64,000 nucleotides of DNA, taken from assembly GCA_003252515.1 (NCBI GenBank), contig QKDR01000019.1, forward strand, positions 11,110 to 75,109, read 5' to 3'. Numbering within the stretch: the stretch's first letter is position 1; each line of letters opens with the position of its first letter. Positions 5,223-39,451 of the stretch are shown piece after piece. A program made the translations under genes and the position numbers. Source of the stretch: Candidatus Delongbacteria bacterium (GTDB taxonomy: Bacteria > UBA4055). The notes under the pieces were generated by a model that did no database searches, had not been told where the DNA came from, and worked only from the letters and a program-made list of their open reading frames with translations.

Positions 5223-6131
5223 TTATGCCATCAGGCACGACATCGCGATGCAGTAATATTTTGACTTTTCGCTTTCGCTTCTGCTCATTACGACCACCGG
5301 TTTCTCAGTTCCCTGGATCAGTCCGCCCAATTCCGCTCCGGCAAACAGCATCAGGCCTTTATAAAAAGCGTTACACGCATCAAGAGAAGGGAAGATCAGT
5401 ATATCGGCGTCCCCGTCGACGGGAGTGTGGACACCTTTGATCTCTACGCTTTCCTTGTCACATGCCAGAAATATGTCGAGCGGGCCGTCAACGATACAGT
5501 TGTCGAGCTGTTTTCTTTCAGCCATTTTACATATAGCTGAATAATCTATCGTGTTAGGAAAATTAGGACTTACTTTTTCACTTGCACCTATAAGAGCGAC
5601 CTTAGGTCTTTCTATACCGAAAGCTCTCGCCATATTCAGACAGTATTTAATTTCGGCAAGTTTCTGTTTAAGATCCGGAAAAGGAAGTACCGCGGTATCG
5701 GAGACGAAAAGGAGTTTATGGTAAGCGGGGACCTGCATGACCGCCACATAGCTCATTATGGCTCCCGGCGGAAGAAGTCCTTTGTTCTTGTCAAGAACAG
5801 CTTTAAGAAATTCATCGGTACCGACAAGCCCTTTCATCAGAACATCAGCCTCGCCGGACTTTACCATTTCAAGGGCTTTCTCGATCGCGTTGGACGGGTG
5901 ATCGCAGTGTATTATGGTGAAAATGGAAGGATCTATTCCCTCTTCTTTAGCTCTCTGTTCGATCTTAGACTTGTTTCCGATAAGTACAGCCTCGGCAAAA
6001 CCGTCTTTTACTGCTCTTGAAATCGCTCCGATCGTGTTCTGATCCTCACCGGAAGCTACAGCGATCTTCTTTTTTATCCCTGACTTAATTACATGTTCGA
6101 CCATCTGGTCAAGAGATTTGATAGGTTCCAT
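5223..6131 (-). CDS. ptb: Phosphate butyryltransferase / phosphotransacylase (paralog 2)
   Basis: 302 aa with the phosphate acetyl/butyryl transferase fold (KGLVGTDEFLKAVL, VDGPLDIFLA, GDADILIFPSLDACN). Its start overlaps the stop of the upstream paralog by 1 nt. Confidence 0.8.
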   Translation of the reverse strand: MEPIKSLDQMVEHVIKSGIKKKIAVASGEDQNTIGAISRAVKDGFAEAVLIGNKSKIEQRAKEEGIDPSIFTIIHCDHPSNAIEKALEMVKSGEADVLMKGLVGTDEFLKAVLDKNKGLLPPGAIMSYVAVMQVPAYHKLLFVSDTAVLPFPDLKQKLAEIKYCLNMARAFGIERPKVALIGASEKVSPNFPNTIDYSAICKMAERKQLDNCIVDGPLDIFLACDKESVEIKGVHTPVDGDADILIFPSLDACNAFYKGLMLFAGAELGGLIQGTEKPVVVMSRSESEKSKYYCIAMSCLMA

Positions 6132-7069
6132 TATGCGTTCATCGCTCCGAGAGCTATCGAGTACAGTTTAGTTTTGACGCTGTCGCCTCTTGATGAAAGA
6201 ACGGCCGGTACTTTTGCGCCTACAACGATCGCTCCCAGTTCTCCGCCGCAAAGCTTTGTATGGCATTTGTAGAAAGTGTTACCCGCTTCGATATTCGGGA
6301 AAACGATGCAGTCGGCATCACCGGCGACCGGGCTCTTAAGCTTCTTTATCCCGGCGCTTTCTTTGTCGATGGCGACATCGAGTGCAAGAGGTCCGTCAAC
6401 AATCGCGCCTTTGATCTGTCCGCGGTCAGCCATCTGGGTGATAATAGCTGCATCGGTACATGAAGGATATTTATAGGAAACTTGTTCCGTGAATGAATGA
6501 ATGGCCACTTTCGGAGTTTCAATGCCAAGAGATTTCGCTACTTTGATGACATAGTTCGTTATAGCGATCTTCTGTTCAAGGTCCGGAAGAATAATCAAAG
6601 CGACATCTGACACGACCAGCAGTTTATGATATGCGGGATTTTCCAGTACTGTGACATGAGTAAGTACAGCCTTAGGAGGAGTGAGTCCTTTTTCTTTATC
6701 CAGTATAGCCTTCATGTATTTATCACTGCTGACAAGGCCTTTCATGATAAAGTCCGCTTTTCCCTCGTTCACGATCTCAACCGCTTTTCTTGTCGCGGTC
6801 ATTTCATCGCTTTCATCTACTATCTGAAATTTATTGATGTCAATATTTTCTTCTTTACAGACTTTTTCGATCTCGGTTCTGGACCCTACGAGCGTTCCCT
6901 CGATAATACCCATGTCTATCGCATGACTTACAGCATCTATAGTGTGAGCGTCATTGGCGTAAGCCGCAACCATTCTTTTTTTAGGTTTCGATTTTAGTTC
7001 TTCCAGCATCTGGTCGAGTTTTGTGATAGGCATTGTTCCCTCCAATAATAAAATTATTTCAATAGACAA
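6131..7069 (-). CDS. Phosphate butyryltransferase / phosphotransacylase (paralog 1)
   Basis: 312 aa, about 45-50% identical by eye to the downstream ptb (KGLVSSDKYMKAIL, VDGPLALDVA, GDADCIVFPNIEAGN). Confidence 0.8.
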   Translation of the reverse strand: MSIEIILLLEGTMPITKLDQMLEELKSKPKKRMVAAYANDAHTIDAVSHAIDMGIIEGTLVGSRTEIEKVCKEENIDINKFQIVDESDEMTATRKAVEIVNEGKADFIMKGLVSSDKYMKAILDKEKGLTPPKAVLTHVTVLENPAYHKLLVVSDVALIILPDLEQKIAITNYVIKVAKSLGIETPKVAIHSFTEQVSYKYPSCTDAAIITQMADRGQIKGAIVDGPLALDVAIDKESAGIKKLKSPVAGDADCIVFPNIEAGNTFYKCHTKLCGGELGAIVVGAKVPAVLSSRGDSVKTKLYSIALGAMNA

Positions 7070-7407: not shown

Positions 7408-8307
7408 CTATTTTTTTCCGTCGCCGATATTCATCAGAGGTAGCGGATTGGGACTGTCTCCGTTGAGAAAGTATATTTTCGCGTTATCGTCTTTCGAGAT
7501 CGCTTTTAATGCATCAAGAGCCTGAAGTTTGATATAATTCGGATTGTTGCCTATAGAATTGTTTACTTTTGATATTCTGTACGCTTCAGCATCTGCAAGC
7601 AGCTTGATCTTATCCGCTTCCATAGATGCCGCGGTTTTTTCAGCCTCTGCCTGAGCTATTTTCTGCTGCTGTTCAGTCTTGAACCTTTCAAGTTCTGCTT
7701 TCTGTTTCTCGACTTCCTGCTCCCTTTCTTTCTTTTTCTCAATGGCGATCGTAATGAACTTGGGTAGAGTTATATCCCTGATAAGAACTGCGCTGACTTC
7801 GACTCCTTTAGGTTCAAGATATTCTTTCAGTCCCGCAAGAAGTGAATTCTCAAGAAATGTCTGTGTTTCATCAGTGAAGAAATCCTCTGCTCTTTTTATC
7901 GATTTACCCTGCTCGCGGATGATCGATCTTAATTTTGGGATGATATGTATCCTTAATACGTCATCGAAATCACCGGTAGACTTTAGTATTTCAGGCGTGT
8001 TAGCGGCTATCAGTCTGAACTGAACGCTCACATCAACGCTTGTCTGAAGCTGGTCCTGAGTCGGGACCTGAGCCTGTTCAAGATGGGTTTTTTCCCTTAC
8101 GTCGTAGATATGCCATCTGTAAAGCGGATTTACAGGAATATGAAGACCTTCATCATAGACTTTTTCCTGCACTTCTCCGAACAGAGTTGCTACACCGACA
8201 TGTCCCGCTTCTATGCTGATGAAAAACCTTTTTCCAAAAAGTAATACGATCAGCGCGATCAAAACTATGAAAGCGACTTTGAATTGTCTGAATCCTCCTG
8301 CTGCCAT
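7408..8307 (-). CDS. SPFH/band-7 (prohibitin/HflC-like) membrane protein
   Basis: 299 aa with an N-terminal TM helix, an SPFH core (GHVGVATLFGEV...) and a C-terminal Glu/Lys-rich coiled coil. Confidence 0.8.
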   Translation of the reverse strand: MAAGGFRQFKVAFIVLIALIVLLFGKRFFISIEAGHVGVATLFGEVQEKVYDEGLHIPVNPLYRWHIYDVREKTHLEQAQVPTQDQLQTSVDVSVQFRLIAANTPEILKSTGDFDDVLRIHIIPKLRSIIREQGKSIKRAEDFFTDETQTFLENSLLAGLKEYLEPKGVEVSAVLIRDITLPKFITIAIEKKKEREQEVEKQKAELERFKTEQQQKIAQAEAEKTAASMEADKIKLLADAEAYRISKVNNSIGNNPNYIKLQALDALKAISKDDNAKIYFLNGDSPNPLPLMNIGDGKK

Positions 8308-8443
8308 AAATTCCTCCCTGTAAGGTTGTTATTAAGTAATTTAAATTAAAATCTCATAAAAGTCCATAAACATAATTCTTGAAAAAATACAGCGGTTTTA
8401 TTTTAGAAAAAACCATATAACCAAATATTTGTATATTTATATC

Positions 8444-8472
8444 TTGCAATAAATCGAAAATTTACATAAATT
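8444..8472 (+). promoter_or_regulatory. Candidate sigma70-like promoter for the hdr-frd-suc-fum-mae operon
   Basis: TTGCAA, 17 nt, TAAATT lies in the AT-rich divergent intergenic region 8308-8536. The assignment is weak and by eye only. Confidence 0.3.
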
Positions 8473-8536
8473 CATATTTTTAATACTGAAGCACATCTTT
8501 TTTAACAATGTAAATTAAAATAGAACGGGTAATCAG

Positions 8537-10921
8537 ATGAGTAAAACCGGAGTATTTCTCTGCCAGTGCGGAGGTAACATCTCGAACACGATTGATCTTG
8601 AAAAGGTTACAGAAGATGTTAAGAAAAGATACGGCGATGATGTTGAGGTTAAGATTTTCTCACACATGTGTTCCGGCGCAGGTCAGAAGCTTATAAAGGA
8701 CGATATTGAAGCTCAGGGGCTCGACAGAGTGGTCGTTGCGGCATGTTCTCCGCAGTTCCATGAGAAGACCTTTAAGGGAGTAATGGAAAAAAGTGGCCTG
8801 AACCCTCATGTTCTTGAGATCGCGAATTTGAGAGAGCATATTTCCTGGACGCACAAGGACAAACCTGAGATCGCAACGGAAAAAGCGAAAGACATTGTCA
8901 GTGCTTCGGTCTCGAAAGTAAAACTCGACGAACCTCTCTTCCCGAAAACGATGAAACTTGGTGACAGAGTGCTTATAATAGGAGGCGGTATCGCAGGTAT
9001 ACAGACAGCCCTCGACCTGGCCGACTCGGGCAAAAAAGTAACGCTGGTCGAGAAACTGCCCACTATCGGCGGGAAAATGGCCGTTCTTACAAAGACCTTT
9101 CCTACTGAGGATTGTTCGGCATGTATAATCTCACCGAAGATGTCAGATGTTCAGGACCATCCGAACATAACTCTTTATACTAATTCGGATATCACCGACA
9201 TTCAGGGGCACAGACTTCATTTCAAAGCAACGATAAAGAACAAAGCCCGTTATATAAAAGACACGATAGATATGGACCAGTGCCTTTCATGCGAGAAATG
9301 CGTACAGGTATGTCCGGTTACCGTAAGAAACTACTGGGAGCAGGGCGTCATAAACAGAAAGGCCGTTTATATCCCTGCGGCCCTTGCAATACCATTCAGA
9401 TATACGGTCGATCCTGATGCATGCCTGAACTTCAAGGGCGAGACCTGCAATAAATGTGTGGAGATTTGTCCGCAGCAGGTGATCGATCTGACGCAGAAGG
9501 ACGAAGTGATCGAGGAAGTGTTCGATTCGATCGTAGTCGCAACCGGATTCGATCTATATGACGCGACGGAAAAGCCTGTCTTCGGATACGGCAAATACAA
9601 AAATGTAGTAACAGCGCTCGAGATGGAGAGGATAGTCGACCATATTAGCGAGGATCAGCCGCCGAGAGAGGTCGGGAACAGAGTGGCGTTCATACAGTGC
9701 GTGGGTTCAAGGGACGAACAGATCGGCAGAGAGTACTGTTCAAGGGTATGCTGCATGTACTCGGTCAAACTCGCTTCACTTTTAAAACAGGCGAAACCGG
9801 AAACGGATATTTATATTTTCTATACGGACCTCAGAGCTTTCGGAAAAGGTTTCGAGGAATATTATAAAAGAGCTCAGAAGATGGGAATTAAGTTCGTTAG
9901 GGGAAAACCTTCGCATTTCGCCGAGAATCCGTTCACGAAACAGGTTACTGTCAATGTAGAGGATACGCTTTCCAGAGATGTTATTGAGACCGATTTCGAT
10001 CTGGTCGTCCTTGCGAACGGTATCGGACTCAGCAAGGCTACGGATCCGATAGTTAATTTCCTGAAACTCGCGAAAAGCGAGGACGGTTTCCTAAAAGAGG
10101 CCCATCCGAAATATAAACCTGTAGATACGCTGATAGAGGGTGTTTTCATCGCCGGAACGGCGCAGGGACCGAAAGATATTCCTGACACTGTCGCTCAGGC
10201 GAGTGCTGCGGCATCTAGGGTTATGGTGACGCTTGCTCAAAAGGAATTCAAGATCGATCCTATACTGGCCTTTGTAAACCAGGAAAAATGCGACGGATGC
10301 AAACTCTGTCTGACGAACTGCCCGAAGAACGCGGTCCGGATGAATGATAGCGGCAAAGCGGAAGTCGAGGAGGCGCTCTGTCTTGGATGCGGGTCGTGCA
10401 TAGCAAGCTGCCCGACCGAAGCGCTGGACCTTTACGCGTACACTTCCGATCAGCTGTATGCCGCAATAGAAGCGATCTTCGCGAACAAAAAAGAAGATGA
10501 GAACAGGGTCCTCGTTTTTGCAGATGACAGCTGCACTTACCGTGTCGCCGATGCTCTGGGTGTCAGGAAGATGAAATACTCGACCGACGTAAGGATAATC
10601 AGAGTGCCTTCAAGCGGAAGGGTTACCCCGAGCCTGATGATGTACGCGATGAAGAAAGGCGCCGACGCGATCCTGATCGGGGACTGCGAGAAAGACAAGC
10701 TTAGAGTATCATGGACGAGCGAAATATGCAGAAAGAGCATTGACGCGGCTAAGAAGATACTGGCTGATGCGGGTGTAGACGGCGAAAGGATATATTTTGA
10801 CGAATTCACGGCAGGATCACTCGCAAAATTTGTTGACAGGGTTAACGGCATAGCCGAATCCGTCACAAAGATGAAAAAGATCACTTCTGATATAAGGGAG
10901 GAATTATGTCAAAGAAAATAA
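8537..10921 (+). CDS. hdrA: Heterodisulfide reductase subunit A-like flavoprotein fused to a C-terminal MvhD-like domain
   Basis: 794 aa with an FAD GxGxxG motif (IIGGGIAGIQTALDLA). HdrA-specific Cys motifs are present: DCSACII, CVGSRDE and CSRVCCMY. Four ferredoxin-type CxxCxxCxxxCP motifs follow (CLSCEKCVQVCP, CNKCVEICP, CDGCKLCLTNCP, CLGCGSCIASCP). The C-terminal ~140 aa resemble MvhD (VLVFADDSC...RVPSSGR...GADAILIGDC). Confidence 0.8.
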   Translation: MSKTGVFLCQCGGNISNTIDLEKVTEDVKKRYGDDVEVKIFSHMCSGAGQKLIKDDIEAQGLDRVVVAACSPQFHEKTFKGVMEKSGLNPHVLEIANLREHISWTHKDKPEIATEKAKDIVSASVSKVKLDEPLFPKTMKLGDRVLIIGGGIAGIQTALDLADSGKKVTLVEKLPTIGGKMAVLTKTFPTEDCSACIISPKMSDVQDHPNITLYTNSDITDIQGHRLHFKATIKNKARYIKDTIDMDQCLSCEKCVQVCPVTVRNYWEQGVINRKAVYIPAALAIPFRYTVDPDACLNFKGETCNKCVEICPQQVIDLTQKDEVIEEVFDSIVVATGFDLYDATEKPVFGYGKYKNVVTALEMERIVDHISEDQPPREVGNRVAFIQCVGSRDEQIGREYCSRVCCMYSVKLASLLKQAKPETDIYIFYTDLRAFGKGFEEYYKRAQKMGIKFVRGKPSHFAENPFTKQVTVNVEDTLSRDVIETDFDLVVLANGIGLSKATDPIVNFLKLAKSEDGFLKEAHPKYKPVDTLIEGVFIAGTAQGPKDIPDTVAQASAAASRVMVTLAQKEFKIDPILAFVNQEKCDGCKLCLTNCPKNAVRMNDSGKAEVEEALCLGCGSCIASCPTEALDLYAYTSDQLYAAIEAIFANKKEDENRVLVFADDSCTYRVADALGVRKMKYSTDVRIIRVPSSGRVTPSLMMYAMKKGADAILIGDCEKDKLRVSWTSEICRKSIDAAKKILADAGVDGERIYFDEFTAGSLAKFVDRVNGIAESVTKMKKITSDIREELCQRK

Positions 10922-11310
10922 AACTTACCGATAAGGGCGTCGAATTTCTGAAAAAAGTTCAGGAGCTCAGCGGAGAGATCATCACTCTGTGCGAACAGTG
11001 CGGGACCTGTACAGGCGGCTGTCCGTACGTGGATCAGATGGATATAACTCCTTCACAGATAATGAGAAAAACCATGCTGGGTCAGACGGACGTTCTGGAT
11101 TCGCAGACCATGTGGATATGCGCCTCATGCTTTACCTGTACGGTCAGGTGTCCGAGAATGTTAGACGTTTCAAAAGTCTCCGAAGCCCTCCGACAGGTTA
11201 AACTGAGAGAAGCGGTGGACAAGATCAATATAGACGGCATATCAGACGAGGACGCGAAAGAGCTTCCTTCAATTGCGGTAGTTTCCGCATTCAGAAAATT
11301 TACAGGTTAA
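10906..11310 (+). CDS. hdrC: HdrC-like subunit with two [4Fe-4S] clusters
   Basis: 134 aa with two cluster motifs, CEQCGTCTGGCP and CASCFTCTVRCP. It overlaps the hdrA stop by 16 nt, which indicates translational coupling. Confidence 0.7.
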   Translation: MSKKIKLTDKGVEFLKKVQELSGEIITLCEQCGTCTGGCPYVDQMDITPSQIMRKTMLGQTDVLDSQTMWICASCFTCTVRCPRMLDVSKVSEALRQVKLREAVDKINIDGISDEDAKELPSIAVVSAFRKFTG

Positions 11311-11333: not shown

Positions 11334-12236
11334 ATGAAAAAAAATATAAAAATATCCTATTTCCCCGGCTGTACTCTGAAAACTACCGCGAAGAACTTTG
11401 AAAGGTCCGCAGTTAAAGCAGGAGGGCTGATAGGTATAGAAATGGTCGAACTGTCGAAATGGAACTGCTGTGGCGTCGTCACCTCGCTCACAAGCGACGA
11501 TCTCATGAAGCACGTGGCACCGATAAGGAATTTTGTTCGCGCCGAAGAGATGAAAGATCAGGGACTGGTCAACGACAGCAGGATGCTCATTCTCTGCTCC
11601 ATGTGCTTCAACACAATGAAAAGAAGTAACAAAAGAGTAAGAGAGAACGCAGAAGACCTAAAATCTATAAACGATTTCATGTATCTGGAGAAAGATTATA
11701 ACGGATCCGTAGGTGTGGTCCACTATCTGGAACTTATGGCTGAGATCGGTTTCGATAATATTGCCGGAAAGATCAAAAAACAGCTGAAAGGTCTTAAGAT
11801 CGCCCCTTATTACGGGTGTATGCTTCTCAGACCGAAAGACATCGGTATAGATGACGCGGAAGCTCCTCACATTATAGAGGACTTCATAGGATCGGTAGGC
11901 GCCGAATCCGTCGGCTGGGACGCAAAAAGCAGATGTTGCGGAAGTTACCATACGGTCAACAACAAGGACATTGTGGTAAATCTGGCTAAAGGGATCATCG
12001 AGAACGCGAGACTTCACGGTGCGGAAGCTCTTATAACATCATGCCCGCTTTGCGCTTTCAATCTCGATAACAGGCAGAAACTAATAATGGAGAAAGATCC
12101 GAATTTCAGACCGATGCCGGTATTCTATTTTACTCAGCTTCTCGCTCTTGCGCTGGGACTCGGGGAAGAAGATATCGGGCTGGAAGGGAATTTCATTGAT
12201 ACCAAACCGCTTCTGAAAGAAAAAAATTTAATATAA
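11334..12236 (+). CDS. hdrB: HdrB-like subunit with two CCG Cys-rich domains
   Basis: 300 aa with duplicated CCG domains: YFPGCTL...NCCGV and YYGCMLLRP...RCCGS...CPLCAFN. Confidence 0.8.
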   Translation: MKKNIKISYFPGCTLKTTAKNFERSAVKAGGLIGIEMVELSKWNCCGVVTSLTSDDLMKHVAPIRNFVRAEEMKDQGLVNDSRMLILCSMCFNTMKRSNKRVRENAEDLKSINDFMYLEKDYNGSVGVVHYLELMAEIGFDNIAGKIKKQLKGLKIAPYYGCMLLRPKDIGIDDAEAPHIIEDFIGSVGAESVGWDAKSRCCGSYHTVNNKDIVVNLAKGIIENARLHGAEALITSCPLCAFNLDNRQKLIMEKDPNFRPMPVFYFTQLLALALGLGEEDIGLEGNFIDTKPLLKEKNLI

Positions 12237-12250
12237 TAACGGGAGTAATT

Positions 12251-12937
12251 ATGTCAGATACTCAAAAGATGGTCAGGGTGTATATCATGGGCGAAGCCTA
12301 CATGGTTCCCGAAAGCTCGACTATCATAATGGCTTTCGAGTATGCCGGTTTCCAGCTTAAGAAAGGGGTCGGATGCCGTGAGGGATACTGCGGAGCCTGT
12401 GCAACGGTCTATCGCGAAAAAGGCGACTATAAACTTAAAGGCGGGCTCGGATGTCAGACGGTCGTTTCGGAAGGAATGTATATAGCTCAGATACCTTTCG
12501 TACCTGCTGATAAACCTAAATACGATATCAATGAACTGGCTCCTGACGTATCAACGTTCATGGAACTTTATCCGAGTGTCTTCAGGTGCGTGTCGTGCAA
12601 TACATGTACCAAAGCCTGTCCTCAGGATATTCAGGTCATGGATTACGTTCAGGCAATAATCAAAGGAGATATAGCTAAATCGGCCCAGTTGTCGTTCGAC
12701 TGTATCAGATGCGGTCTGTGCGCTCTCAGATGTCCGGCGGAGATAGTTCAGTTCAACGTCGCGATCCTGGCTCAAAGACTCTACGGAAAATATCTTTCTC
12801 CCAAGAACGAGCAGCTTGACAACAGGGTAAAGGAGGTCGAGGAAGGCAAGTACGACGGAGAGATAAAGAAAATGATGAACATGGAAAAGAGGGAATTGAC
12901 TGACATGTATTTCGGACGCGAGATCAAGATATCGTAA
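12251..12937 (+). CDS. Succinate dehydrogenase/fumarate reductase iron-sulfur subunit-like protein ([2Fe-2S] plus two [4Fe-4S])
   Basis: 228 aa. The N-terminal [2Fe-2S] ferredoxin fold is CREGYCGACA....GC. Two CxxCxxCxxxCP motifs follow (CVSCNTCTKACP, CIRCGLCALRCP). Confidence 0.75.
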   Translation: MSDTQKMVRVYIMGEAYMVPESSTIIMAFEYAGFQLKKGVGCREGYCGACATVYREKGDYKLKGGLGCQTVVSEGMYIAQIPFVPADKPKYDINELAPDVSTFMELYPSVFRCVSCNTCTKACPQDIQVMDYVQAIIKGDIAKSAQLSFDCIRCGLCALRCPAEIVQFNVAILAQRLYGKYLSPKNEQLDNRVKEVEEGKYDGEIKKMMNMEKRELTDMYFGREIKIS

Positions 12938-12963
12938 TAAAGACCAATTTTAAGGAGTAAAAA

Positions 12964-14634
12964 ATGTATCCTGAATATATGATGGAATCAATAAGGAAAG
13001 TTGAAGCGACCAGAGGTGAAAGGCTTGAACTTGTCCGTAAAAAAGGTAAAATGATCTATCCCGGGATGAGCGAGCAGGAAAGGAAAGAAGTTCTTGATAA
13101 TTTTCACCCCGATTACAAATCCGATGCCAGAAGGAAGGTCAAAGTCGGTCCGGATAAAGATCTGATAATGACGACAGAGATAGCAGATATGTTAGAATCG
13201 TATTCGAGGATCGACATAAAAAAATTCGACCTGACAAAGCCTGATTTCGAGACCGATGTCTTCGTGATCGGAGCAGGGTCCGCCGGGATGTCGGCCGCGC
13301 TCGTGGCGTCCGAGAACGGAGCGGACGTTCTTCTCGCGACAAAGCTGAGGCTCGGGGACGCGAACTCCATGATGGCTCAGGGCGGTATTCAGGCGGCGGA
13401 CGCAAAAGACGACTCCCCGGCGATCCACTATCTTGACGTGATCGGCGGAGGGCATTTCGACAACAAGCCCGAACTGGTGGAGGCTCTCGTGAATGATGCT
13501 CCCAAGTCGATAAAATGGCTTGAAGAGCTCGGAGTAATGTTCGACAAGGAAAAAGACGGCAGGATGACCGTGAAATCCGGCGGCGGTACAAGCAGGAACA
13601 GAATGCATTCGGCAAGAGACTATACCGGTGCGGCTATCTGCAAGGTTATCAGGGATGAAGTCTACAACAGAATGGACAAGATCAAATATTTAGAGTATAC
13701 TGCTGCAGTCGAACTCATACTGAACGAAAAGAAAGAAGTGGCGGGGGCTGTTATTTATCACCTTGAAACCAAGCAGTATTCAATTGTAAAAGCAAAATCT
13801 GTGATCATCGCTACCGGTGGGTTCGGAAGACTGCACATCAGAGGTTACGAAACGACCAATCACTATGGAGCGACTGCGGACGGACTTATTATGGCTTACA
13901 GAGCAGGCGCGAACCTGCTGTATATGGACTCTGTACAGTACCACCCGACAGGCGCTGTTTATCCTGAGCAGATCGTAGGATTCCTATGTACCGAGAAGAT
14001 CAGAGGTCTTGGCGCTCAACCTGTCAACAAGGACGGCGAACTGTTCGTATATCCGCTTGAACCGAGAGATATCGAAGCGTCGGCTTTTATCAGAGAATGC
14101 GAGAAAGGTAAGGGAATTAAAACACCTTCCGGGCTTCATGGGATCTGGCTTGACACACCTCTGATCGAGCAGATAAGCGGTGAAGGAACCATAGAGAAAG
14201 CTCTCCCCGCCATGCTCAGGCAGTACGAAAGATTCGATATTGACATAAGGAAATATCCTATGCTTGTTTATCCGACTCTGCATTATCAGAATGGCGGTAT
14301 AGAGATCAACGCTAAAAGCGAATCGAAGATACCGGGACTGTATGTTGCGGGAGAAGCTACAGGCGGAGTTCACGGACGGAACAGACTGATGGGCAACTCT
14401 CAGCTTGACATTATCGTATTCGGCAAAAGAGCAGGCTACTATGCTTCAGAAAGATCGAAAGGGATCAAAGACGCAGGCAAACTCTCTCTTGAACACGTGA
14501 CCGCATACAATAAGGAAGTAGAAGCCCTCGGTATCGAAAAGAGCAAAATAGCTCCTATAATACTGCCGGATTACATTCCTGACCATGTAAAAGCGAAACA
14601 GCTCGTGAACGAATATAACGGAACTCTTATATAA
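12964..14634 (+). CDS. Fumarate reductase/succinate dehydrogenase flavoprotein subunit-like protein (FAD)
   Basis: 556 aa with FAD dinucleotide binding (VFVIGAGSAGMSAALVA...SMMAQGGIQAA) and the FrdA/SdhA catalytic region (HYGATADG..., YHPTG, RGLGA). By-eye alignment to E. coli FrdA places Asn/Ser where the covalent-FAD histidine sits. Confidence 0.8.
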   Translation: MYPEYMMESIRKVEATRGERLELVRKKGKMIYPGMSEQERKEVLDNFHPDYKSDARRKVKVGPDKDLIMTTEIADMLESYSRIDIKKFDLTKPDFETDVFVIGAGSAGMSAALVASENGADVLLATKLRLGDANSMMAQGGIQAADAKDDSPAIHYLDVIGGGHFDNKPELVEALVNDAPKSIKWLEELGVMFDKEKDGRMTVKSGGGTSRNRMHSARDYTGAAICKVIRDEVYNRMDKIKYLEYTAAVELILNEKKEVAGAVIYHLETKQYSIVKAKSVIIATGGFGRLHIRGYETTNHYGATADGLIMAYRAGANLLYMDSVQYHPTGAVYPEQIVGFLCTEKIRGLGAQPVNKDGELFVYPLEPRDIEASAFIRECEKGKGIKTPSGLHGIWLDTPLIEQISGEGTIEKALPAMLRQYERFDIDIRKYPMLVYPTLHYQNGGIEINAKSESKIPGLYVAGEATGGVHGRNRLMGNSQLDIIVFGKRAGYYASERSKGIKDAGKLSLEHVTAYNKEVEALGIEKSKIAPIILPDYIPDHVKAKQLVNEYNGTLI

Positions 14635-14656: not shown

Positions 14657-15832
14657 ATGAAGATCCATGAATATCAGGCAAAAGAGCTTTTTGTCAGGTA
14701 CGGCATTCCCGTTCCGCCGGGAAAAATGACAGACAATCCTGAACAGGCGTCGGAAGCCGCGAAGTCGATCGGCGGAGGAATATGGGCGGTCAAAGCCCAG
14801 ATTCACGCAGGCGGCAGAGGCAAGGGCGGCGGAGTCAGACTGGCAAAAAGTCTCACTGAGGTAAACGAGCACGCAAAAGCGATCCTCGGGATGAACCTTG
14901 TCACCGCACAGACCGGTCCGGAAGGACAGCCGGTCAGAAAAATATATATCGAAGGCGGTGTAGATATTGCCAGAGAGTTTTATCTCGGTATGATACTCGA
15001 CAGATCCGCAGAGATGCCTGTAATGATGCTGTCGTCCGAAGGCGGGATGGAGATCGAGAAAGTAGCCGCCGAATCTCCCGAGAAGATAATAAAGATCTAT
15101 GTTGATCCGCTTTTCGGACTGAAGAAGTTCCAGATACTTGAAGCCGGTTACAAACTGGGGCTTCATAAAGACGATATAAAAGAACTGTATGTGTTCGCGA
15201 AAGGTCTCTATGATCTTTATACCGGGCTGGATGCGAGTATAGTCGAGATAAACCCTCTGGTGCTTACCAAAGAAGGTCGGTTCATTGCGCTGGACGCTAA
15301 AATCGTGTTCGATGATAATGCATTGTTCAGACATAATGAAGTGGTTGAAATGAGAGATTTTTCTGAAGAGGAACCCGCGGAGACAGAAGCAGGTAAATAC
15401 GGGCTGAGTTATGTTAAACTTGACGGTAATGTCGGGTGTATGGTGAACGGAGCAGGACTTGCAATGACCACAATGGACGTGATAAAGCTGGTTGGAGGAG
15501 AACCTGCCAATTTTCTTGATGTCGGAGGCAACGCAAGTGCAAAAACTGTAGCCAAAGGGTTCGAGATTATACTTAATGATCCTAACGTCAAGGTGATCTT
15601 CGTTAATATTTTCGGAGGTATCGTCAGATGCGACAGGATAGCGAACGGAATTCTTGAGGCGATAGGAGGTACCGGAATAAATATCCCGATAATAGTAAGG
15701 CTGGACGGTACTAACGCCCCGGAGGCTCTGGAGATACTGAAAAAGGCAGGTAATCCAAATATTATTACATCGGACAGACTGTCAGCAGGTGCAAAACTTG
15801 CTGTTCAGGTAGCTGCGGGAGGTGAAAAATGA
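14657..15832 (+). CDS. sucC: Succinyl-CoA synthetase (ADP-forming) beta subunit
   Basis: 391 aa. The canonical SucC N-terminus is [20 protein letters not shown], followed by an ATP-grasp fold. It overlaps sucD by 4 nt. Confidence 0.95.
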
Positions 15833-16707
15833 GCATATTGGTAGGCAGCGGATCAAAAGTTATCGTGCAGGGATTTACCGGGAAAGAAGGCACTTTTCAC
15901 GCTCAGCAATGTATTGAATACGGTACGAACATCGTGGGCGGCGTAACGCCCGGAAAAGGCGGTGAACACCATCTCGACAGGAAAGTGTTCAATACTGTAA
16001 AAGATGCTGTCGCTGAAACCGGAGCGGACGTATCTCTTATCTTCGTCCCGCCGTCTTCAGGCGGTGAGGCTATTATCGAGGCCGCATATGCCGGGATAAA
16101 GATAATAGTCTGCATAACGGAAGGTATTCCCGTGCTGGATGTATTGAAAGCGAAAAAATACGCAGAAATGAAAGGCGCAAGGCTTATAGGACCGAACTGT
16201 CCGGGTATAATTACACCGGAAGAAGCTAAAATAGGTATTATGCCGGGAAATATTTTCAGGAAAGGCAGAGTGGGGCTGATATCCAAATCGGGCACTTTGA
16301 CATACGAGGCGGCAAATCAGATCGTCAAGGCGGGTTTCGGAATTTCGACCGCTATCGGAATAGGCGGAGATCAGATAATCGGAACTACATTTATCGACGC
16401 GCTTAAACTTTTCAAAGAAGACGATAAAACTAAGGCTGTAGTACTTATAGGTGAGATCGGTGGTGATCTTGAGATACAGGCCGCTGAATATATAAAAAAG
16501 GAATTCAACAAACCTGTGATGGCTTTTATAGCCGGACAGACAGCTCCGAAAGGTAAAAGGATGGGACATGCCGGAGCGATCATAGCCAGTTCGAAAGGTA
16601 CCGCTGAAGAAAAAATAAAAGCTCTCAGGAACGCCGGTGTCGCGGTATGCGATATACCCGAGTGTTTCGGCGAACTTTTAAAGAAGGAGTTCGAAGGAAT
16701 AGCTTAA
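15829..16707 (+). CDS. sucD: Succinyl-CoA synthetase alpha subunit
   Basis: 292 aa with the CoA-binding N-terminus [15 protein letters not shown]. The phospho-His loop (GHAGAII) is present. Confidence 0.95.
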
Positions 16708-16719
16708 AACGGAGGGACT

Positions 16720-17565
16720 ATGAGAGAAATACATACTGACGACATAATATCCTCGGTAAAAAAACTCAGTATAGAAGCCAACTATTATCTCAGTGAAGAC
16801 GTGATCCGAAGAATAGAGTATCTAAAAGAAAAAGAGGAATCGGGAACGGCTGTCGAAGTCCTGAACATACTACTTGAGAATTATAAAATGGCCGCGAAGG
16901 AGAAGATGCCGATCTGTCAGGATACGGGTATTGCTGTCGTATTCCTCGAGATAGGTCAGGATGTACATATTATCGGCGGGGACCTGACCGAGGCCATAAA
17001 CGAGGGCGTCAGACAGGGTTATAAGAACGGCTATCTCAGGAAGTCTATGGTTGACGATCCGATAGTCGACCGCAAGAACACGACCGACAACACTCCTGCT
17101 ATAATCTATACCGACATCGTTCCCGGTGACAAAATGAAGATCACTCTCGCTCCGAAAGGCGGCGGCTCCGAAAACATGAGCGAAGTTAAGATGATGAAGG
17201 CTGCCGACGGCATAGAAGGCGTGATAAGCTTCGTTGTCGACAGGATAAAAAGATCGGGCGGCAATCCGTGTCCGCCGATTGTTGTAGGTGTTGGTCTCGG
17301 CGGCAATTTTGAACAGAGCGCCCTGCTCGCCAAGAAGTCTCTTCTCAGAAACCTCGACGAACCTAATCCTGATCCTAAATGGGAAAAGGTCGAGAACGAA
17401 ATACTCGAGAAAATAAATAAACTCGGCATCGGTCCGCAGGGACTGGGCGGAAGAACAACAGCCCTTGCCGTTCATATACTAACGAAACCTTGTCATATTG
17501 CGTCAATGCCGGTAGCCGTGAACGTCCAGTGCCACGCGGCAAGACATAAATCCGTAATATTGTAA
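16720..17565 (+). CDS. Fe-S hydro-lyase alpha subunit (class I fumarate hydratase / tartrate dehydratase alpha type)
   Basis: 281 aa. CQDTGIAVVFLEIGQD is the characteristic FumA/TtdA N-terminal catalytic motif. Confidence 0.85.
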   Translation: MREIHTDDIISSVKKLSIEANYYLSEDVIRRIEYLKEKEESGTAVEVLNILLENYKMAAKEKMPICQDTGIAVVFLEIGQDVHIIGGDLTEAINEGVRQGYKNGYLRKSMVDDPIVDRKNTTDNTPAIIYTDIVPGDKMKITLAPKGGGSENMSEVKMMKAADGIEGVISFVVDRIKRSGGNPCPPIVVGVGLGGNFEQSALLAKKSLLRNLDEPNPDPKWEKVENEILEKINKLGIGPQGLGGRTTALAVHILTKPCHIASMPVAVNVQCHAARHKSVIL

Positions 17566-17577
17566 CCGGAGGGAAAT

Positions 17578-18132
17578 ATGCCTAAAACAGTTTATCTTAA
17601 AACACCGTTGAAAAGCAGTGACCTTACCGGGCTCGAGATAGGCGACAAGGTCTTTATTACGGGAACGGTCTATACCGCCAGAGACGCGGCTCACAAGAGG
17701 CTTGTTCAGCTTTTGGAAAAAGGGGAAAAACTGCCTTTTGATCCTCATGGTCAGATCATATATTATGTCGGACCTGCGCCTACTCCTCCCGGAAAAGCGA
17801 TAGGATCGGCGGGACCGACAACAAGCTACAGGATGGACCCTTATGCTCCGGCTCTCATGGATGCAGGTATCAAGGCTATGATCGGTAAAGGCGAAAGGAG
17901 TAAAGCAGTAATTGATTCGATGATAAAGAATCAGGCTGTTTATCTCGCAGCTATAGGCGGAGCGGCTGTCGTTATATCTGAATCGATAAAAAAATCAGAA
18001 ATAATAGCATATGAAGATCTGGGCGCGGAAGCAATAAGGAAGCTTGAGGTGGAGAATTTCCCCTGCATAGTCGCGAACGATGTTAAAGGAAACGATATCT
18101 TTATCGAGGGCGTAAAGAAGTATAAAAGATGA
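17578..18132 (+). CDS. Fe-S hydro-lyase beta subunit (class I fumarate hydratase beta type)
   Basis: 184 aa resembling the FumA C-terminal/TtdB domain (GTVYTARDAAHKRL..., GKGERS). It pairs with the upstream alpha subunit. Confidence 0.85.
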   Translation: MPKTVYLKTPLKSSDLTGLEIGDKVFITGTVYTARDAAHKRLVQLLEKGEKLPFDPHGQIIYYVGPAPTPPGKAIGSAGPTTSYRMDPYAPALMDAGIKAMIGKGERSKAVIDSMIKNQAVYLAAIGGAAVVISESIKKSEIIAYEDLGAEAIRKLEVENFPCIVANDVKGNDIFIEGVKKYKR

Positions 18133-18168: not shown

Positions 18169-19623
18169 ATGGAAAAGATCAAAATGGACCTGTCAAATCT
18201 GAATAAAGTATTTCCTGATGATTTTACGCAGGAACAGATCGCGAAAGCGAAGACAGCTTTCCTGAAAAGACTTTCAGAAACCGCGCATAAATTCTACGGC
18301 GGAAAGATACAGACAGTACCGAAAGCCGGCGTTTTCGGGTTCAACTGGTTCAACGTATGGTATACTCCCGGTGTATCTAAAGTGTCAACCGACATAAGAG
18401 ATAACAACGACGTTTCTTTTGAATTGAGCAACAGAGGTAACCTGGTCGGCGTGGTCAGCGATTCTACAAGGGTTCTCGGAGACGGGGACTGTACTCCTTC
18501 CGGTGGACTCGGAGTAATGGAAGGTAAAGCGTTCTTAATGAAATATCTCGGAGGGGTCGACGCCGTGGCTCTCTGCGTTGACAGTAAAGGTAAGGACGGC
18601 AGGAACGATCCAGACAAGATCATAGAGTTCGTTAAAATGGTTCAGCACAGCTTCGGAGCGATAAACCTCGAAGATATTTCCCAGCCGAACTGCTTTAAAG
18701 TACTTGACGTCCTCCGTGAAGAATGCGACATTCCAGTCTGGCACGATGATGCTCAGGGAACCGCAAGCGTAACACTCGCGGGACTTCTGAATGCACTTAA
18801 GCTGGTAAAAAAAGATATTAAAGACGTTAAAATAGTACTCCTCGGAGCCGGCGCTTCGAACACAACGATAGCAAGGCTGATCATTACTGACGGAGCCGAT
18901 CCGGGAAACCTGATAATCTTCGACTCCAGAGGATCGCTCAACAAAAGCAGAGAGGACATCAAAGCGGATACCCGTTTCTACAGGAAGTGGGAACTCTGCG
19001 AGACCACGAACAAAGATCAGGTGACCGAAATCGCTGAAGCAATGAAAGGTTCTGATGTACTGATCGCGCTGTCAACTCCGGGTCCGGATACTGTAAAAAA
19101 GGAATGGATATCGGTCATGGCCGAAAAATCTATCGTATTCACATGTGCGAATCCCGTTCCGGAGATATATCCGTACGCCGCAAAAGAAGCCGGAGCCTAT
19201 ATCGTGGCGACAGGAAGAGGCGACTTCCCGAACCAGGTCAACAACTCGATAGGATTTCCGGGAATACTTAAAGGTGCTCTGATGGTCAGGGCGAAAAAGA
19301 TCACCGACAATATGGCTATAGCTGCAGCTCATTCACTGGCGGACTATGCAGAAAAAAGAGGTATCGATCCCGAGAATATCGTTCCGACAATGGATGAAGC
19401 GGAAGTCTTCCCTGTCGAAGCTGCCGATGTGGCAATGCAGGCAATCAGGGACGGTGTTGCAAGGATCAACATTACATGGGAAGAAGCTTTCAGTAAAGCA
19501 AAACAGGATATCGAATATTCCAGAAGCATGACAAAAACGCTGATGGATACCGGATATATCAAAACGCCGGAAGAAACCATGCTCCAGGAAGCGCTTGACT
19601 TCGCTATATCTCAGGTAAGGTAA
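18169..19623 (+). CDS. NAD(P)-dependent malic enzyme (malate dehydrogenase, oxaloacetate-decarboxylating)
   Basis: 484 aa with the malic-enzyme N-terminal domain (VWYTPGVS, VSDSTRVLGDGD) and a Rossmann fold (LLGAGASNTTIARLI). Confidence 0.85.
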   Translation: MEKIKMDLSNLNKVFPDDFTQEQIAKAKTAFLKRLSETAHKFYGGKIQTVPKAGVFGFNWFNVWYTPGVSKVSTDIRDNNDVSFELSNRGNLVGVVSDSTRVLGDGDCTPSGGLGVMEGKAFLMKYLGGVDAVALCVDSKGKDGRNDPDKIIEFVKMVQHSFGAINLEDISQPNCFKVLDVLREECDIPVWHDDAQGTASVTLAGLLNALKLVKKDIKDVKIVLLGAGASNTTIARLIITDGADPGNLIIFDSRGSLNKSREDIKADTRFYRKWELCETTNKDQVTEIAEAMKGSDVLIALSTPGPDTVKKEWISVMAEKSIVFTCANPVPEIYPYAAKEAGAYIVATGRGDFPNQVNNSIGFPGILKGALMVRAKKITDNMAIAAAHSLADYAEKRGIDPENIVPTMDEAEVFPVEAADVAMQAIRDGVARINITWEEAFSKAKQDIEYSRSMTKTLMDTGYIKTPEETMLQEALDFAISQVR

Positions 19624-19649: not shown

Positions 19650-19679
19650 GATCAGCAGCTTTTATTGCTGATCTTTTTT
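19650..19679. terminator. Rho-independent terminator hairpin between the convergent malic-enzyme and DTW genes
   Basis: GATCAGCA-GCTTTTAT-TGCTGATC (8-bp stem) followed by TTTTTT. Confidence 0.6.
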
Positions 19680-39447: not shown

Positions 39448-39451
39448 CTAC

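Follow-up and report, generated by a model that had tools for sequence, protein, structure and literature searches.

Fumarate reduction is normally membrane-bound and quinone-linked. The operon described here lies in a 64,000-nucleotide stretch of Candidatus Delongbacteria DNA (contig QKDR01000019.1; hereafter the window) and encodes a fumarate reductase-type flavoprotein together with an Fe-S partner, which can be compared with several described systems. With E. coli complex II (FrdABCD/SdhCDAB) the pair shares the flavoprotein fold, the substrate-binding and proton-donor residues and the [2Fe-2S] N-domain of the Fe-S subunit. In contrast to complex II, however, it has no covalent-FAD His and no anchor subunits, the Fe-S subunit has a full fourth Cys at the [3Fe-4S] motif, and the flavoprotein is without most of the helical/C-terminal domain. 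TfrAB of Methanothermobacter resembles the window enzyme in being soluble, in a flavoprotein without the covalent-FAD His, in an Fe-S subunit with one [2Fe-2S] and two [4Fe-4S] clusters and in its link to HdrB-type CCG chemistry. For soluble enzymes of the Tfr type, neither the absence of the His nor the second full [4Fe-4S] motif is in fact unusual. In TfrB, however, Fe-S subunit and CCG domains form one polypeptide, whereas the window encodes a separate HdrB, which is closer to HdrB/SdhE than to the TfrB C-terminus; HdrA, HdrC and a flavoprotein extension of 95 residues come in addition.

A further reference is the methanogen MvhAGD-HdrABC complex (5odc, 8rvu), or HdrA2B2C2 with fused MvhD, to which the window HdrA aligns over its full length with 662 bits (phmmer, residues 3-648 against HdrA of the solved complexes). 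The window HdrB and HdrC keep all cluster ligands, and MvhD is represented by a domain. As in the methanogen system, MvhAG is encoded in many related loci, too; the window differs in having no hydrogenase and a fumarate reductase pair in the operon as presumed high-potential outlet. Unlike methanogens, these bacteria are not known to produce CoM-S-S-CoB.

The combination of a soluble Frd with Hdr genes has already been noted in metagenome papers, with a putative function. For Antarctic Cloacimonadota, TFR, Hdr, Mvh, OGOR, fumarase and SCS are described as functionally linked (PMC8542988), and putative tfrAB genes with flxABCD-hdrABC are reported for Ca. Endoriftia/Thioflavicoccus, where tfrAB expression in Endoriftia departs from the pattern of the remaining Hdr-Flx/rTCA cluster (PMC11636981). 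An electron-bifurcating Hdr-Frd complex was proposed for related clusters (PMC6315080), and the coupling idea also appears in PMC8542988 and PMC11636981. Since orthologues 70-75% identical to the window flavoprotein, from the Cloacimonadota Ca. Celaenobacter (L040) and Ca. Tenebribacter (L068), have already been called "TFR + Hdr", our operon belongs to a known kind. Compared with the published tfrAB + Hdr clusters, it has the order HdrA-HdrC-HdrB with MvhD fused to HdrA, lacks Mvh, Flx and oxoglutarate oxidoreductase and includes malic enzyme. A His-to-Asn change, an N-terminal extension or failed Tfr thresholds are not reported in the consulted passages of these papers. By description, the operon can also be set beside FrdABCDE of Hydrogenobacter thermophilus, a soluble, irreversible enzyme of the reductive TCA cycle with five subunits, one of them NADH-binding, whose A subunit is homologous to SdhA/FrdA (as summarised in PMC13147460) and for which, unlike for the window enzyme, NADH is the proven donor.

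A soluble flavoprotein and Fe-S pair in a ten-gene operon

Ten genes between 8537 and 19623 on the forward strand form the operon, whose features are as follows:

8537-10921, +, HdrA-like flavoprotein, 794 aa, with C-terminally fused MvhD/FlpD (NCBIfam HdrA2, Pfam FlpD)
10508-10873, +, MvhD/FlpD domain within HdrA, residues 658-779 (PF02662, 100.9 bits)
10906-11310, +, HdrC-like protein, 134 aa, two CxxCxxCxxxCP motifs (TIGR03290, 70 bits)
11334-12236, +, HdrB-like protein, 300 aa, two complete CCG domains (PF02754 matched twice)
12251-12937, +, Fe-S subunit, 228 aa, [2Fe-2S] ferredoxin-like N-domain and 2x[4Fe-4S] dicluster (Pfam Fer2, Fer4_9)
12374-12454, +, [2Fe-2S] ligand region, Cys42/47/50/68, aligning with CxxxxCxxC...C of E. 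coli FrdB/SdhB
12587-12622, +, first CxxCxxCxxxCP motif CVSCNTCTKACP, residues 113-124
12701-12736, +, second, complete CxxCxxCxxxCP motif CIRCGLCALRCP, residues 151-162
12953-12958, +, AAGGAG ribosome-binding site of the flavoprotein gene, read directly, 5 nt 5' of the ATG
12964-14634, +, fumarate reductase-type flavoprotein, 556 aa (PF00890, Foldseek, residue alignment)
12964-13248, +, N-terminal extension specific to the family, residues 1-95, not present in FrdA, SdhA, NadB and TfrA
13363-13365, +, Asn134 codon at the 8-alpha-N3-histidyl-FAD ligand position (phmmer and MAFFT alignments)
14657-15832, +, succinyl-CoA synthetase beta (NF001913, 561 bits, above cutoff)
15829-16707, +, succinyl-CoA synthetase alpha (NF004230, 429 bits, above cutoff)
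16720-17565, +, class I two-subunit fumarate hydratase, alpha (NF004885, 416 bits, above cutoff)
17578-18132, +, class I two-subunit fumarate hydratase, beta (NF005310, 272 bits, above cutoff)
18169-19623, +, malic enzyme, 484 aa (PF00390, PF03949)
19650-19673, +, terminator-like hairpin followed by a T run after malic enzyme, marking the operon end

The genes are tightly packed, with an overlap of HdrA and HdrC and gaps of 12-36 nt, and a scan of the intergenic region 8307-8537 for a sigma-70 consensus gave no convincing promoter. None of the ten proteins contains a transmembrane segment, the highest 19-residue Kyte-Doolittle mean of 1.74 belonging to a Rossmann strand of SucD; neither are SdhC/D- or FrdC/D-type anchor genes found in the operon, which leaves no space for further genes. 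Membrane association was rejected on these grounds. The suggestion of the earlier note that the enzyme is cytoplasmic and has no membrane anchor genes thus agrees with the lack of transmembrane segments, the missing SdhC/D-type genes and the soluble Hdr-type partners. Elsewhere in the window, tRNA and Rfam scans returned only a tRNA-Leu, which is unrelated.

The open reading frame of the flavoprotein had been correctly placed, in coordinates and in frame. PF00890 (FAD_binding_2) matches residues 98-479 with 246 bits, and Foldseek assigns the protein to the SdhA/FrdA superfamily, with SdhA/FrdA as best matches (TMq ~0.6). Alignment to FrdA further showed that all residues of the dicarboxylate site are kept, H327, T329, E344 and R347 corresponding to FrdA H232, T234, E245 and R248, and R368, H440 and R474 to R287, H355 and R390. 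These are the capping residues H, T, E, R, R, H, R typical of the SdhA/FrdA/NadB superfamily, whose PF00890 domain with the GxGxxG dinucleotide fold is present as well. The AF2 model has an overall pLDDT of 73.7 and falls below 50 exactly at the FAD/substrate loops (133-139, 150-163, 204-219, 296-303, 328-341 and 471-477); from it we used the fold assignment alone.

At the level of curated families the protein stands apart. It misses the complex II flavoprotein models, among them TIGR01812 (286 bits, cutoff 567) and PRK09231 (222 bits, cutoff 854), and also the best-scoring NCBIfam family, the TfrA equivalog NF004900 (327.7 bits, cutoff 718), which a bona fide TfrA, P0192, passes with 765 bits. 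The match to NF004900 covers only model positions 6-409 of 546, the C-terminal third being absent: after the NRL motif, about 80 residues follow in our flavoprotein vs about 160 in TfrA. Judged by sequence, the flavoprotein is a separate clade with an N-terminal extension of ~95 residues and a truncated C-terminus. The extension has no match in a Pfam scan, has a column identity of 0.68-0.79, about equal to the conservation of the core, and is predicted to form helices at 4-31 and 37-47 (pLDDT ~80-90). In a natural fusion of Fe-S protein and flavoprotein (P0122) it sits between the fused Fe-S subunit and the core.

The earlier note had proposed, from an alignment by eye, that the covalent-FAD histidine is missing, and this holds in phmmer and MAFFT L-INS-i alignments. 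The translation of 13342-13386, KLRLGDANSMMAQGG, is paired by phmmer against PDB with KSLFGKAHTVMAEGG of M. smegmatis Sdh, KVFPTRSHTVSAQGG of E. coli SdhA and KVYPMRSHTVAAEGG of FrdA. In the MAFFT L-INS-i alignment of the flavoprotein with 45 other sequences, references included, no histidine of the window protein falls at the ligand position; Asn134 shares the column with FrdA His45 (mature His44), SdhA His45 and NadB Ser45. Bona fide TfrA P0192 likewise has no His there. The Asn is invariant in 81 of 81 family sequences from 80 genomes and in all 52 database homologues. As one of the six peptide patterns with which the genomes were fetched contained the DANSMMAQ motif of this very region, conservation was cross-checked on HMMER-derived representatives found independently of the patterns, which also carry Asn, except for three short forms of ~400 aa with Lys (P0152, P0164 and P0181).

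As Asn replaces the His ligand, FAD is very probably bound non-covalently and the flavoprotein would, with the same high likelihood, work as a one-way fumarate reductase. In E. coli FrdA, absence of the histidyl bond shifts the FAD potential from -55 to -145 mV, and variants without the ligand keep fumarate reduction and lose succinate oxidation (PMC5773532). A lower flavin potential is thus established for E. coli FrdA and may be expected by analogy for the window protein.

The Fe-S partner indeed features two full CxxCxxCxxxCP motifs, as previously reported, and besides these a [2Fe-2S] motif, amounting to 12 Cys altogether. CIRCGLCALRCP takes the place of the three-Cys [3Fe-4S] motif of membrane complex II, and the dicluster domain is closer to polyferredoxins than to SdhB. 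Consistently, the SdhB/FrdB models are missed (TIGR00384, 25 vs 88 bits; PRK05950, 26 vs 228 bits), as is the TfrB model NF004898 (30.5 bits, cutoff 385). The Fe-S subunit is without a CCG domain; the CCG domains lie in the separate HdrB-like protein, which reaches 31.5 bits on the same model.

Hdr genes and the neighbourhood of related loci

The three genes directly upstream, HdrA-MvhD, HdrC and HdrB, had been overlooked in the earlier note. They are probably the electron source of the fumarate reductase pair, and we judge them to be the more interesting part. All features of an HdrABC module were found: the FAD and Fe-S domains of HdrA, two [4Fe-4S] motifs in HdrC (8 Cys, at 29-39 and 72-82) and two CCG motifs in HdrB with all ten Cys kept (13, 45, 46, 88, 91 and 162, 201, 202, 237, 240). 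The HdrC start overlaps the HdrA stop by 16 nt. The HdrA-like protein scores 875 bits over residues 3-783 on NCBIfam HdrA2 and stays below the cutoff of 1100; the HdrB-like protein reaches 161 bits on HdrB (TIGR03288), 154 bits on SdhE, both below the cutoffs (345 and 500 bits, respectively), and 136 bits against the solved HdrB 9sfi_C. That methanogen Hdr equivalog cutoffs are missed is as expected for bacterial homologues. The window has MvhD fused to HdrA and encodes no dehydrogenase. Pfam scans of its other large ORFs gave no hydrogenase, Flx/NuoF or formate dehydrogenase, and apart from the flavin domain of HdrA the operon shows no NAD(P)H-binding subunit in Pfam.

Synteny was counted in 54 related genome loci with enough flank. 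The Fe-S gene adjoins the flavoprotein gene in every one of them, and Hdr genes lie near the pair in 45, spread over distant phyla and in two different gene orders. All of HdrABC is present in 34 loci, TCA genes in 32, Kor-type oxoacid:ferredoxin oxidoreductase in 18 and MvhAG, i.e., the Mvh [NiFe] hydrogenase, in 17; in many loci MvhD is a separate gene beside MvhAG. As the gene order differs between the two architectures, adjacency does not indicate which Hdr subunit touches the Fe-S subunit. Moreover, the pair occurs without Hdr in nine loci (within 7-10 kb of upstream and 1-10 kb of downstream flank), and in a tubeworm-symbiont locus it is adjoined by a NuoF-like gene with no Hdr; Hdr is therefore not obligatory. 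The gammaproteobacterial sister clade (P0123, 44% identical to the window flavoprotein) resembles it in the Asn, in the N-terminal extension and in its short C-terminus. This clade includes a protein of a tubeworm (Ridgeia) symbiont, P0354, with 69% identity to P0123. Altogether, at least 463 of 185,579 species-level genomes contain relatives, annotated inconsistently as 'FAD-binding protein', 'L-aspartate oxidase' or 'TfrA'.

Proposed electron supply to fumarate and alternative explanations

The best explanation overall, and in our view a fairly likely one, is a soluble fumarate reductase wired to the Hdr module. The conserved synteny, the tight gene packing, the kept substrate site and the natural fusion of Fe-S protein and flavoprotein speak for it; the nine loci without Hdr, the full disulfide-reducing site of HdrB, the tfrAB expression in Endoriftia, the absence of an electron-donor module from the window and the low AF2 confidence at the FAD/substrate loops speak against it. 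The operon would convert pyruvate via malate, fumarate and succinate to succinyl-CoA, by malic enzyme, fumarase, fumarate reductase and succinyl-CoA synthetase in turn. The fumarate step would be carried out by a soluble two-subunit unit of a flavoprotein with non-covalent FAD and an Fe-S protein with one [2Fe-2S] and two [4Fe-4S] clusters. Having no donor site of its own, this unit could dock on HdrA(MvhD)-HdrC-HdrB, and we consider a physical Hdr-Frd complex to be likely. Electrons would then pass from the HdrA flavin via the clusters of HdrC and HdrB to the Fe-S subunit, FAD and finally fumarate. In the methanogen Mvh-Hdr complex, the high-potential acceptor is CoM-S-S-CoB, whose counterpart would here be fumarate. 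With fumarate as a strong acceptor (+30 mV), the electron pairs of a mid-potential donor could be split at the HdrA flavin: one electron would go to fumarate, the other uphill to ferredoxin. We put forward this bifurcation tentatively, on the grounds of homology to bifurcating HdrA and of thermodynamic plausibility. The donor would be H2 in clusters with Mvh hydrogenase.

The most far-reaching form of the proposal, which we regard as rather speculative, is that all five proteins form one soluble bifurcating complex in which fumarate replaces the heterodisulfide without a thiol intermediate, i.e., a new enzyme class. Each fumarate reduced would then also yield reduced ferredoxin, and the N-terminal extension of the flavoprotein could serve as docking element. 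In the hydrogenase-less version of the window, the fused MvhD or HdrA itself would accept electrons from a soluble donor, e.g., NAD(P)H.

Alternatively, HdrB, the Fe-S subunit and the flavoprotein could act as a split TfrAB, that is a thiol:fumarate reductase oxidising a dithiol (two low-molecular-weight thiols, or a protein like DsrC), with HdrA/HdrC re-reducing the disulfide, so that a thiol, either diffusible or bound to protein, would connect the half-reactions in place of a direct wire. This appears unlikely to us, even though TfrA is the best NCBIfam match, related genes are labelled tfrAB with a DsrC-like carrier as one option (PMC11636981, PMC8542988) and HdrB has both complete CCG motifs of disulfide-reducing non-cubane clusters. 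Electron wiring alone would not require such a full disulfide-reducing site, which is a hint of a thiol intermediate. However, since the operon encodes just one HdrB-like module, the disulfide would have to be formed and consumed at one and the same site; there is no gene for a thiol carrier or cofactor synthesis in the operon, CoM and CoB are not known in these bacteria, and both Tfr models are missed widely (328 vs 718 bits for TfrA, 30 vs 385 bits for TfrB). A less probable option still is that the enzyme runs as succinate dehydrogenase in syntrophic propionate oxidation by the methylmalonyl-CoA pathway, with Hdr confurcating the electrons of succinate and of reduced ferredoxin so as to form H2, formate or NADH. 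Propionate oxidation via succinyl-CoA synthetase, Sdh/Frd and malic enzyme has often been suggested for Cloacimonadota (PMC12590816), every step of the operon is reversible on paper, and the window contains a carboxyltransferase gene at 37680-39218. Against this reading, loss of the covalent-FAD ligand abolishes succinate oxidation in FrdA (PMC5773532), and succinate (+30 mV) and ferredoxin (~-450 mV) average ~-210 mV by our own calculation, which is too positive for the reduction of NAD+ or protons under standard conditions. Furthermore, related loci contain Mvh-type hydrogenase and Kor-type oxidoreductases, which the literature reads as a reductive TCA context (PMC8542988).

We give equally little weight to the idea that the Hdr genes are co-regulated neighbours only, acting on an unrelated disulfide, and that reduced ferredoxin or another soluble carrier feeds the pair. 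The nine loci without Hdr near the pair, the NuoF-like partner in the symbiont locus and the resemblance of the dicluster domain to a generic ferredoxin speak for it; the presence of Hdr genes in five sixths of the loci, across distant phyla and in two gene orders, and the packing of the window's five genes, with overlap or gaps of 14-26 nt, speak against it. The nearly equal scores of the HdrB-like protein on the SdhE/MFR and HdrB models might also recall a membrane-associated type-E-like succinate:quinone or quinol:fumarate reductase with an SdhE 'anchor'. Yet both scores lie far below their cutoffs, HdrA and HdrC are present and translationally linked, whereas type E enzymes are without them, the covalent His is lost, and neither an SdhF-like gene nor hydrophobic or Tat features were found, which makes this explanation very improbable. 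We regard it as practically negligible that the protein is NadB (L-aspartate oxidase) or a superfamily flavoenzyme with a different substrate. The His is missing from NadB too, E. coli having Ser45 and some NadB-like representatives Asn, the catalytic residues are common to both proteins, and some databases label relatives 'L-aspartate oxidase'. The flavoprotein nevertheless scores only 281 bits on the NadB model TIGR00551 (cutoff 453), groups apart from NadB in a simple neighbour-joining tree (BLOSUM62, no bootstrap support), always has its Fe-S partner and usually has fumarase and succinyl-CoA synthetase as neighbours. NadB is a monomeric enzyme and is not known to have an Fe-S subunit. NadB, which the earlier note had named as the identity that would overturn its reading, was rejected on the score, the tree position and this obligatory partner.

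The family is large, its annotation is inconsistent and it reaches the cutoff of no curated family, so that a model of its own and one biochemical characterisation would be of use. With regard to the preferred Hdr-wired fumarate reductase, the lost covalent flavin argues that these enzymes run only towards succinate, which speaks against their commonly assumed role in syntrophic propionate oxidation by Cloacimonadota. If the five-protein complex were real, fermenting or autotrophic members of Cloacimonadota, Marinisomatota, Delongbacteria and Aminicenantes would gain an energy-conserving fumarate step without quinones or membranes. In this context, a soluble, Hdr-coupled version would allow quinone-less anaerobes to capture the large drop in free energy as reduced ferredoxin. 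For a number of abundant uncultured phyla, the energy balance of carbon fixation by the reductive TCA cycle and of fermentation to succinate/propionate would change with it.

Operon structure and the Fe-S partner

The flavoprotein is the product of the fifth gene in a compact + strand operon of ten genes, which also encodes all three heterodisulfide reductase (Hdr) subunits:

8537-10921, + strand: HdrA, 794 aa, with a fused MvhD/FlpD domain (residues 658-779)
10906-11310, + strand: HdrC, overlapping the HdrA stop
11334-12236, + strand: HdrB
12251-12937, + strand: Fe-S subunit, twelve Cys
12964-14634, + strand: flavoprotein, 556 aa, Pfam FAD_binding_2 at residues 98-479
14657-15832, + strand: SucC
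15829-16707, + strand: SucD
16720-17565, + strand: fumarase alpha
17578-18132, + strand: fumarase beta
18169-19623, + strand: malic enzyme
19650-19673: terminator-like hairpin 3′ of the malic enzyme gene

HdrA was matched along its whole length to HdrA of solved electron-bifurcating complexes of Hdr with the [NiFe] hydrogenase Mvh (8rvu, 662 bits; 5odc, 656 bits), HdrC carries two [4Fe-4S] motifs, and HdrB, which matched solved HdrB chains, keeps all ten Cys of its two CCG motifs. In the Fe-S subunit, Cys42/47/50/68 fall on the FrdB and SdhB [2Fe-2S] ligands in the alignment, and the two full CxxCxxCxxxCP motifs claimed in the earlier note are present at residues 113-124 and 151-162. The flavoprotein is paired with this three-cluster protein and co-encoded with HdrABC and with enzymes on either side of fumarate in the pathway. 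A natural single-chain fusion among the database representatives (P0122, 727 aa) comprises an Fe-S subunit (2Fe-2S plus two CxxCxxCxxxCP), an N-terminal extension and the flavoprotein. This Rosetta-stone evidence shows that the two subunits work together and locates the extension beside the Fe-S subunit.

The flanks are unrelated genes on the opposite strand; those upstream encode a Band 7 protein, a kinase and two phosphotransacylases, and the downstream one encodes a DTW protein. The two tandem phosphate acetyl/butyryl-transferase paralogues (5223-7069 and 4115-5188, both –) adjoin the acetate/butyrate-kinase-family gene, an acyl-phosphate ATP-yielding module divergent from the operon, with the Band 7 gene in between. 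Elsewhere, a 1345-aa TPR + CHAT-domain protein (29-4066, +), a 2090-aa SprA-like type IX secretion protein (45825-52097, +) and a Por_Secre_tail protein (28513-29229) are consistent with an FCB-group organism. A 712-aa protein (30352-32490, –) fuses many ankyrin repeats to a metallo-beta-lactamase-fold domain, an unusual architecture for bacteria. No Pfam match was found for 26833-28488 (+, 551 aa) at E <= 1e-5, or for 43189-43929 (+, 246 aa) and 54175-55308 (–, 377 aa) at E <= 1e-6.

The FAD site and family of the flavoprotein

Since an AAGGAG ribosome-binding site, read from the sequence, lies 5 nt 5′ of the ATG, the long N-terminus of the flavoprotein is real. In a phmmer search of all PDB chains, the translated segment 13342-13386, KLRLGDANSMMAQGG, was aligned with KSLFGKAHTVMAEGG (M. 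smegmatis enzyme), KVFPTRSHTVSAQGG (E. coli SdhA) and KVYPMRSHTVAAEGG (E. coli FrdA). Alignment by MAFFT L-INS-i with the products of frdA, sdhA and nadB (E. coli MG1655 record) and 42 database representatives agrees: because its column joins Asn134 to FrdA His45 (mature numbering His44), SdhA His45 and NadB Ser45, the earlier by-eye placement of an Asn/Ser at the covalent-FAD His position was correct. This Asn is kept in 81/81 sequences (80 genomes) and in all 52 of 52 database homologues. The substrate and catalytic residues of a fumarate/succinate-type active site are complete in the alignment (H327, T329, E344, R347, R368, H440 and R474, corresponding to FrdA H232, T234, E245, R248, R287, H355 and R390). 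An AlphaFold2 model (pLDDT 73.7, pTM 0.79) adopts the SdhA/FrdA fold, with M. smegmatis Sdh1 and E. coli FrdA as best Foldseek matches (TM ~0.6). The N-terminal extension, for which there was no Pfam match, was modelled as two helices with good confidence.

None of the curated NCBIfam models reached threshold, with 328 bits vs a cutoff of 718 for TfrA of thiol:fumarate reductase (Tfr), 286 vs 567 for SdhA/FrdA (TIGR01812) and 281 vs 453 for NadB. When 1.8 billion cluster representatives were searched exhaustively with HMMER, scores dropped steeply beyond a small group of relatives. All of these carry the Asn, are extended by ~80-95 residues at the N-terminus and have a short C-terminus, with 22-80 residues past the NRL motif vs 150-210 in FrdA, SdhA, NadB and TfrA. 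In a neighbour-joining tree, they cluster with ~400-residue forms bearing Asn or Lys at the His site, apart from both the TfrA/SdhA-like and the FrdA/SdhA/NadB groups. Phylogeny hence leaves the flavoprotein outside the NadB group, and with the low model score a NadB identity is poorly supported. The ~400-residue sister group (P0145, P0148, P0151, P0163, P0170, P0196 and similar) has neither the N-terminal extension nor the C-terminal domain. A 40%-identical member of the Asn-bearing, N-extended clade (P0128/P0285) is annotated in the genome of Prochlorococcus sp. MIT 1201 (WP_413360575.1), where a soluble fumarate reductase of anaerobe type would not be expected. As P0192, a bona fide TfrA scorer (765 bits, passing the equivalog cutoff), likewise has no His, a missing covalent ligand is normal among Tfr-like soluble enzymes.

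Distribution and published clusters

A relative is present in at least 463 of 185,579 species-level genomes. The nearest proteins are from Candidatus Delongbacteria (82%), followed at 62-77% identity by Cloacimonadota, Neomarinimicrobiota, Fidelibacterota, Sumerlaeota, Aminicenantes and assorted MAGs. The operon proteins as well as Mvh, Kor (2-oxoacid:ferredoxin oxidoreductase) and NuoF-like proteins were mapped on 80 loci, fetched by six peptide patterns including one with the Asn motif, and counted in the 54 with at least 5 kb upstream. The Fe-S gene directly precedes the flavoprotein gene in 54/54, at least one Hdr gene is found in 45/54 and complete HdrABC in 34/54, while SucCD, fumarase or malic enzyme occur in 32/54, Kor-type oxidoreductases in 18/54 and the MvhAG [NiFe] hydrogenase in 17/54. 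Two architectures recur: the hydrogenase-free window type, HdrA(MvhD-fused)-HdrC-HdrB-FeS-Flavo, and HdrC-HdrB-HdrA-MvhD-FeS-Flavo with adjoining MvhG-MvhA (one example read with precomputed Pfam annotation). A 161-aa protein without Pfam match, perhaps a hydrogenase maturation protease, repeatedly separates the Fe-S gene from MvhD or MvhA, and homologues of a 231-aa TPR-repeat protein (L084:1934-2629), absent from the window, lie beside fumarase, Mvh and Hdr genes in ~15 loci.

Linkage of Hdr and fumarate reductase genes is already known. Rubin-Blum et al. place putative tfrAB among flxABCD-hdrABC and korABCD in tubeworm symbionts and Thioflavicoccus and propose a complex shuttling electrons to fumarate reductase (PMC6315080), the expression data of Mitchell et al. 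set tfrAB outside the differential-expression pattern of the remaining cluster (PMC11636981), Williams et al. describe one cluster in Ca. Celaenobacter with TFR, OGOR, fumarase, SCS, Mvh and Hdr (PMC8542988), and the idea of bifurcation reappears in a 2026 survey (PMC13147460). The Williams et al. MAGs Celaenobacter (L040, 70% identity) and Tenebribacter (L068, 75%) are among our loci. P0123, of a gammaproteobacterial sister clade, has 44% identity to the window protein and likewise carries the Asn, the extension and the short C-terminus; P0354, which bears the name of the Ridgeia symbiont, has 69% identity to P0123. Our literature search found no biochemical work on any clade member, and the window locus is a further member of an uncharacterised cluster type recognised in metagenomic literature. 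The available parts of the published accounts do not describe that these "TfrA" proteins form their own clade failing the TfrA, TfrB, SdhA and NadB thresholds, their invariant Asn at the flavinylation site, their conserved N-terminal extension and truncated C-terminus, or the hydrogenase-free architecture with MvhD fused to HdrA.

Electron supply and direction

No hydrophobic stretch fit for a membrane helix occurs in any of the ten operon proteins, in line with the lack of an anchor asserted earlier, and a type-E-like membrane enzyme is poorly supported. Together with the missing FAD ligand, this supports the earlier reading as a soluble fumarate reductase, whose low potential would follow by analogy. 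In E. coli FrdA, the covalent bond lifts the FAD potential from -145 to -55 mV, and ligand-free variants lose succinate oxidation but remain active as fumarate reductases (PMC5773532). In the window protein, FAD would very probably be non-covalent and of low potential, so that the enzyme would reduce fumarate and not oxidise succinate. Succinate oxidation in syntrophic propionate degradation is commonly assumed for Cloacimonadota (PMC12590816); however, the loss of the ligand and the energetics both speak against it. The intact CCG site of HdrB leaves room for a true thiol-mediated Tfr mechanism, although there is a single HdrB copy, no thiol-carrier gene is present and the TfrA and TfrB thresholds are failed.

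Hdr and Frd could also be independent of each other, as 9/54 loci hold the pair without Hdr, but this is unlikely given a linkage conserved across phyla in two gene orders. In a tubeworm-symbiont locus (L087:9354-12877, endosymbiont of Ridgeia), the pair is followed not by Hdr but by a NuoF-like gene (Complex1_51K, NADH_4Fe-4S) and a Kor-type oxidoreductase, suggesting a direct NADH-linked form. Because of these nine loci and this NuoF-like replacement, the pair behaves as a catalytic cassette plugged into varied cytoplasmic electron-input modules, mostly Hdr.

In the window operon, the pair probably draws its electrons from Hdr, and the simplest path would run from HdrA FAD via HdrC, HdrB and the Fe-S subunit to the flavoprotein FAD. 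HdrA could even bifurcate, with the second electron reducing ferredoxin, since fumarate (+30 mV) accepts electrons still more readily than the heterodisulfide; for a donor at -320 to -414 mV and acceptors at +30 and ~-450 mV, we estimate the overall reaction to be exergonic. The donor would be H2 in loci with Mvh. As no donor module is encoded in the 64-kb window, NAD(P)H, an unlinked hydrogenase or ferredoxin itself are all candidates here.

Taken as a whole, the operon looks like a reductive route leading from pyruvate to succinyl-CoA, which might supply a reductive TCA cycle or the formation of succinate or propionate. A solitary carboxyltransferase gene of methylmalonyl-CoA/propionyl-CoA type (37680-39218, –; PF01039, 616 bits), has tRNA-Leu (39366-39448) and a gene for glutamate dehydrogenase (39632-40975) as neighbours and might connect succinyl-CoA with propionate metabolism, which fits a methylmalonyl-CoA route without proving it. 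The upstream Hdr module is more informative than the missing His, which is ordinary for Tfr-like enzymes, and we regard the Hdr-Frd system as a credible, testable candidate for a new class of electron-bifurcating enzymes, at somewhat less than even chances.
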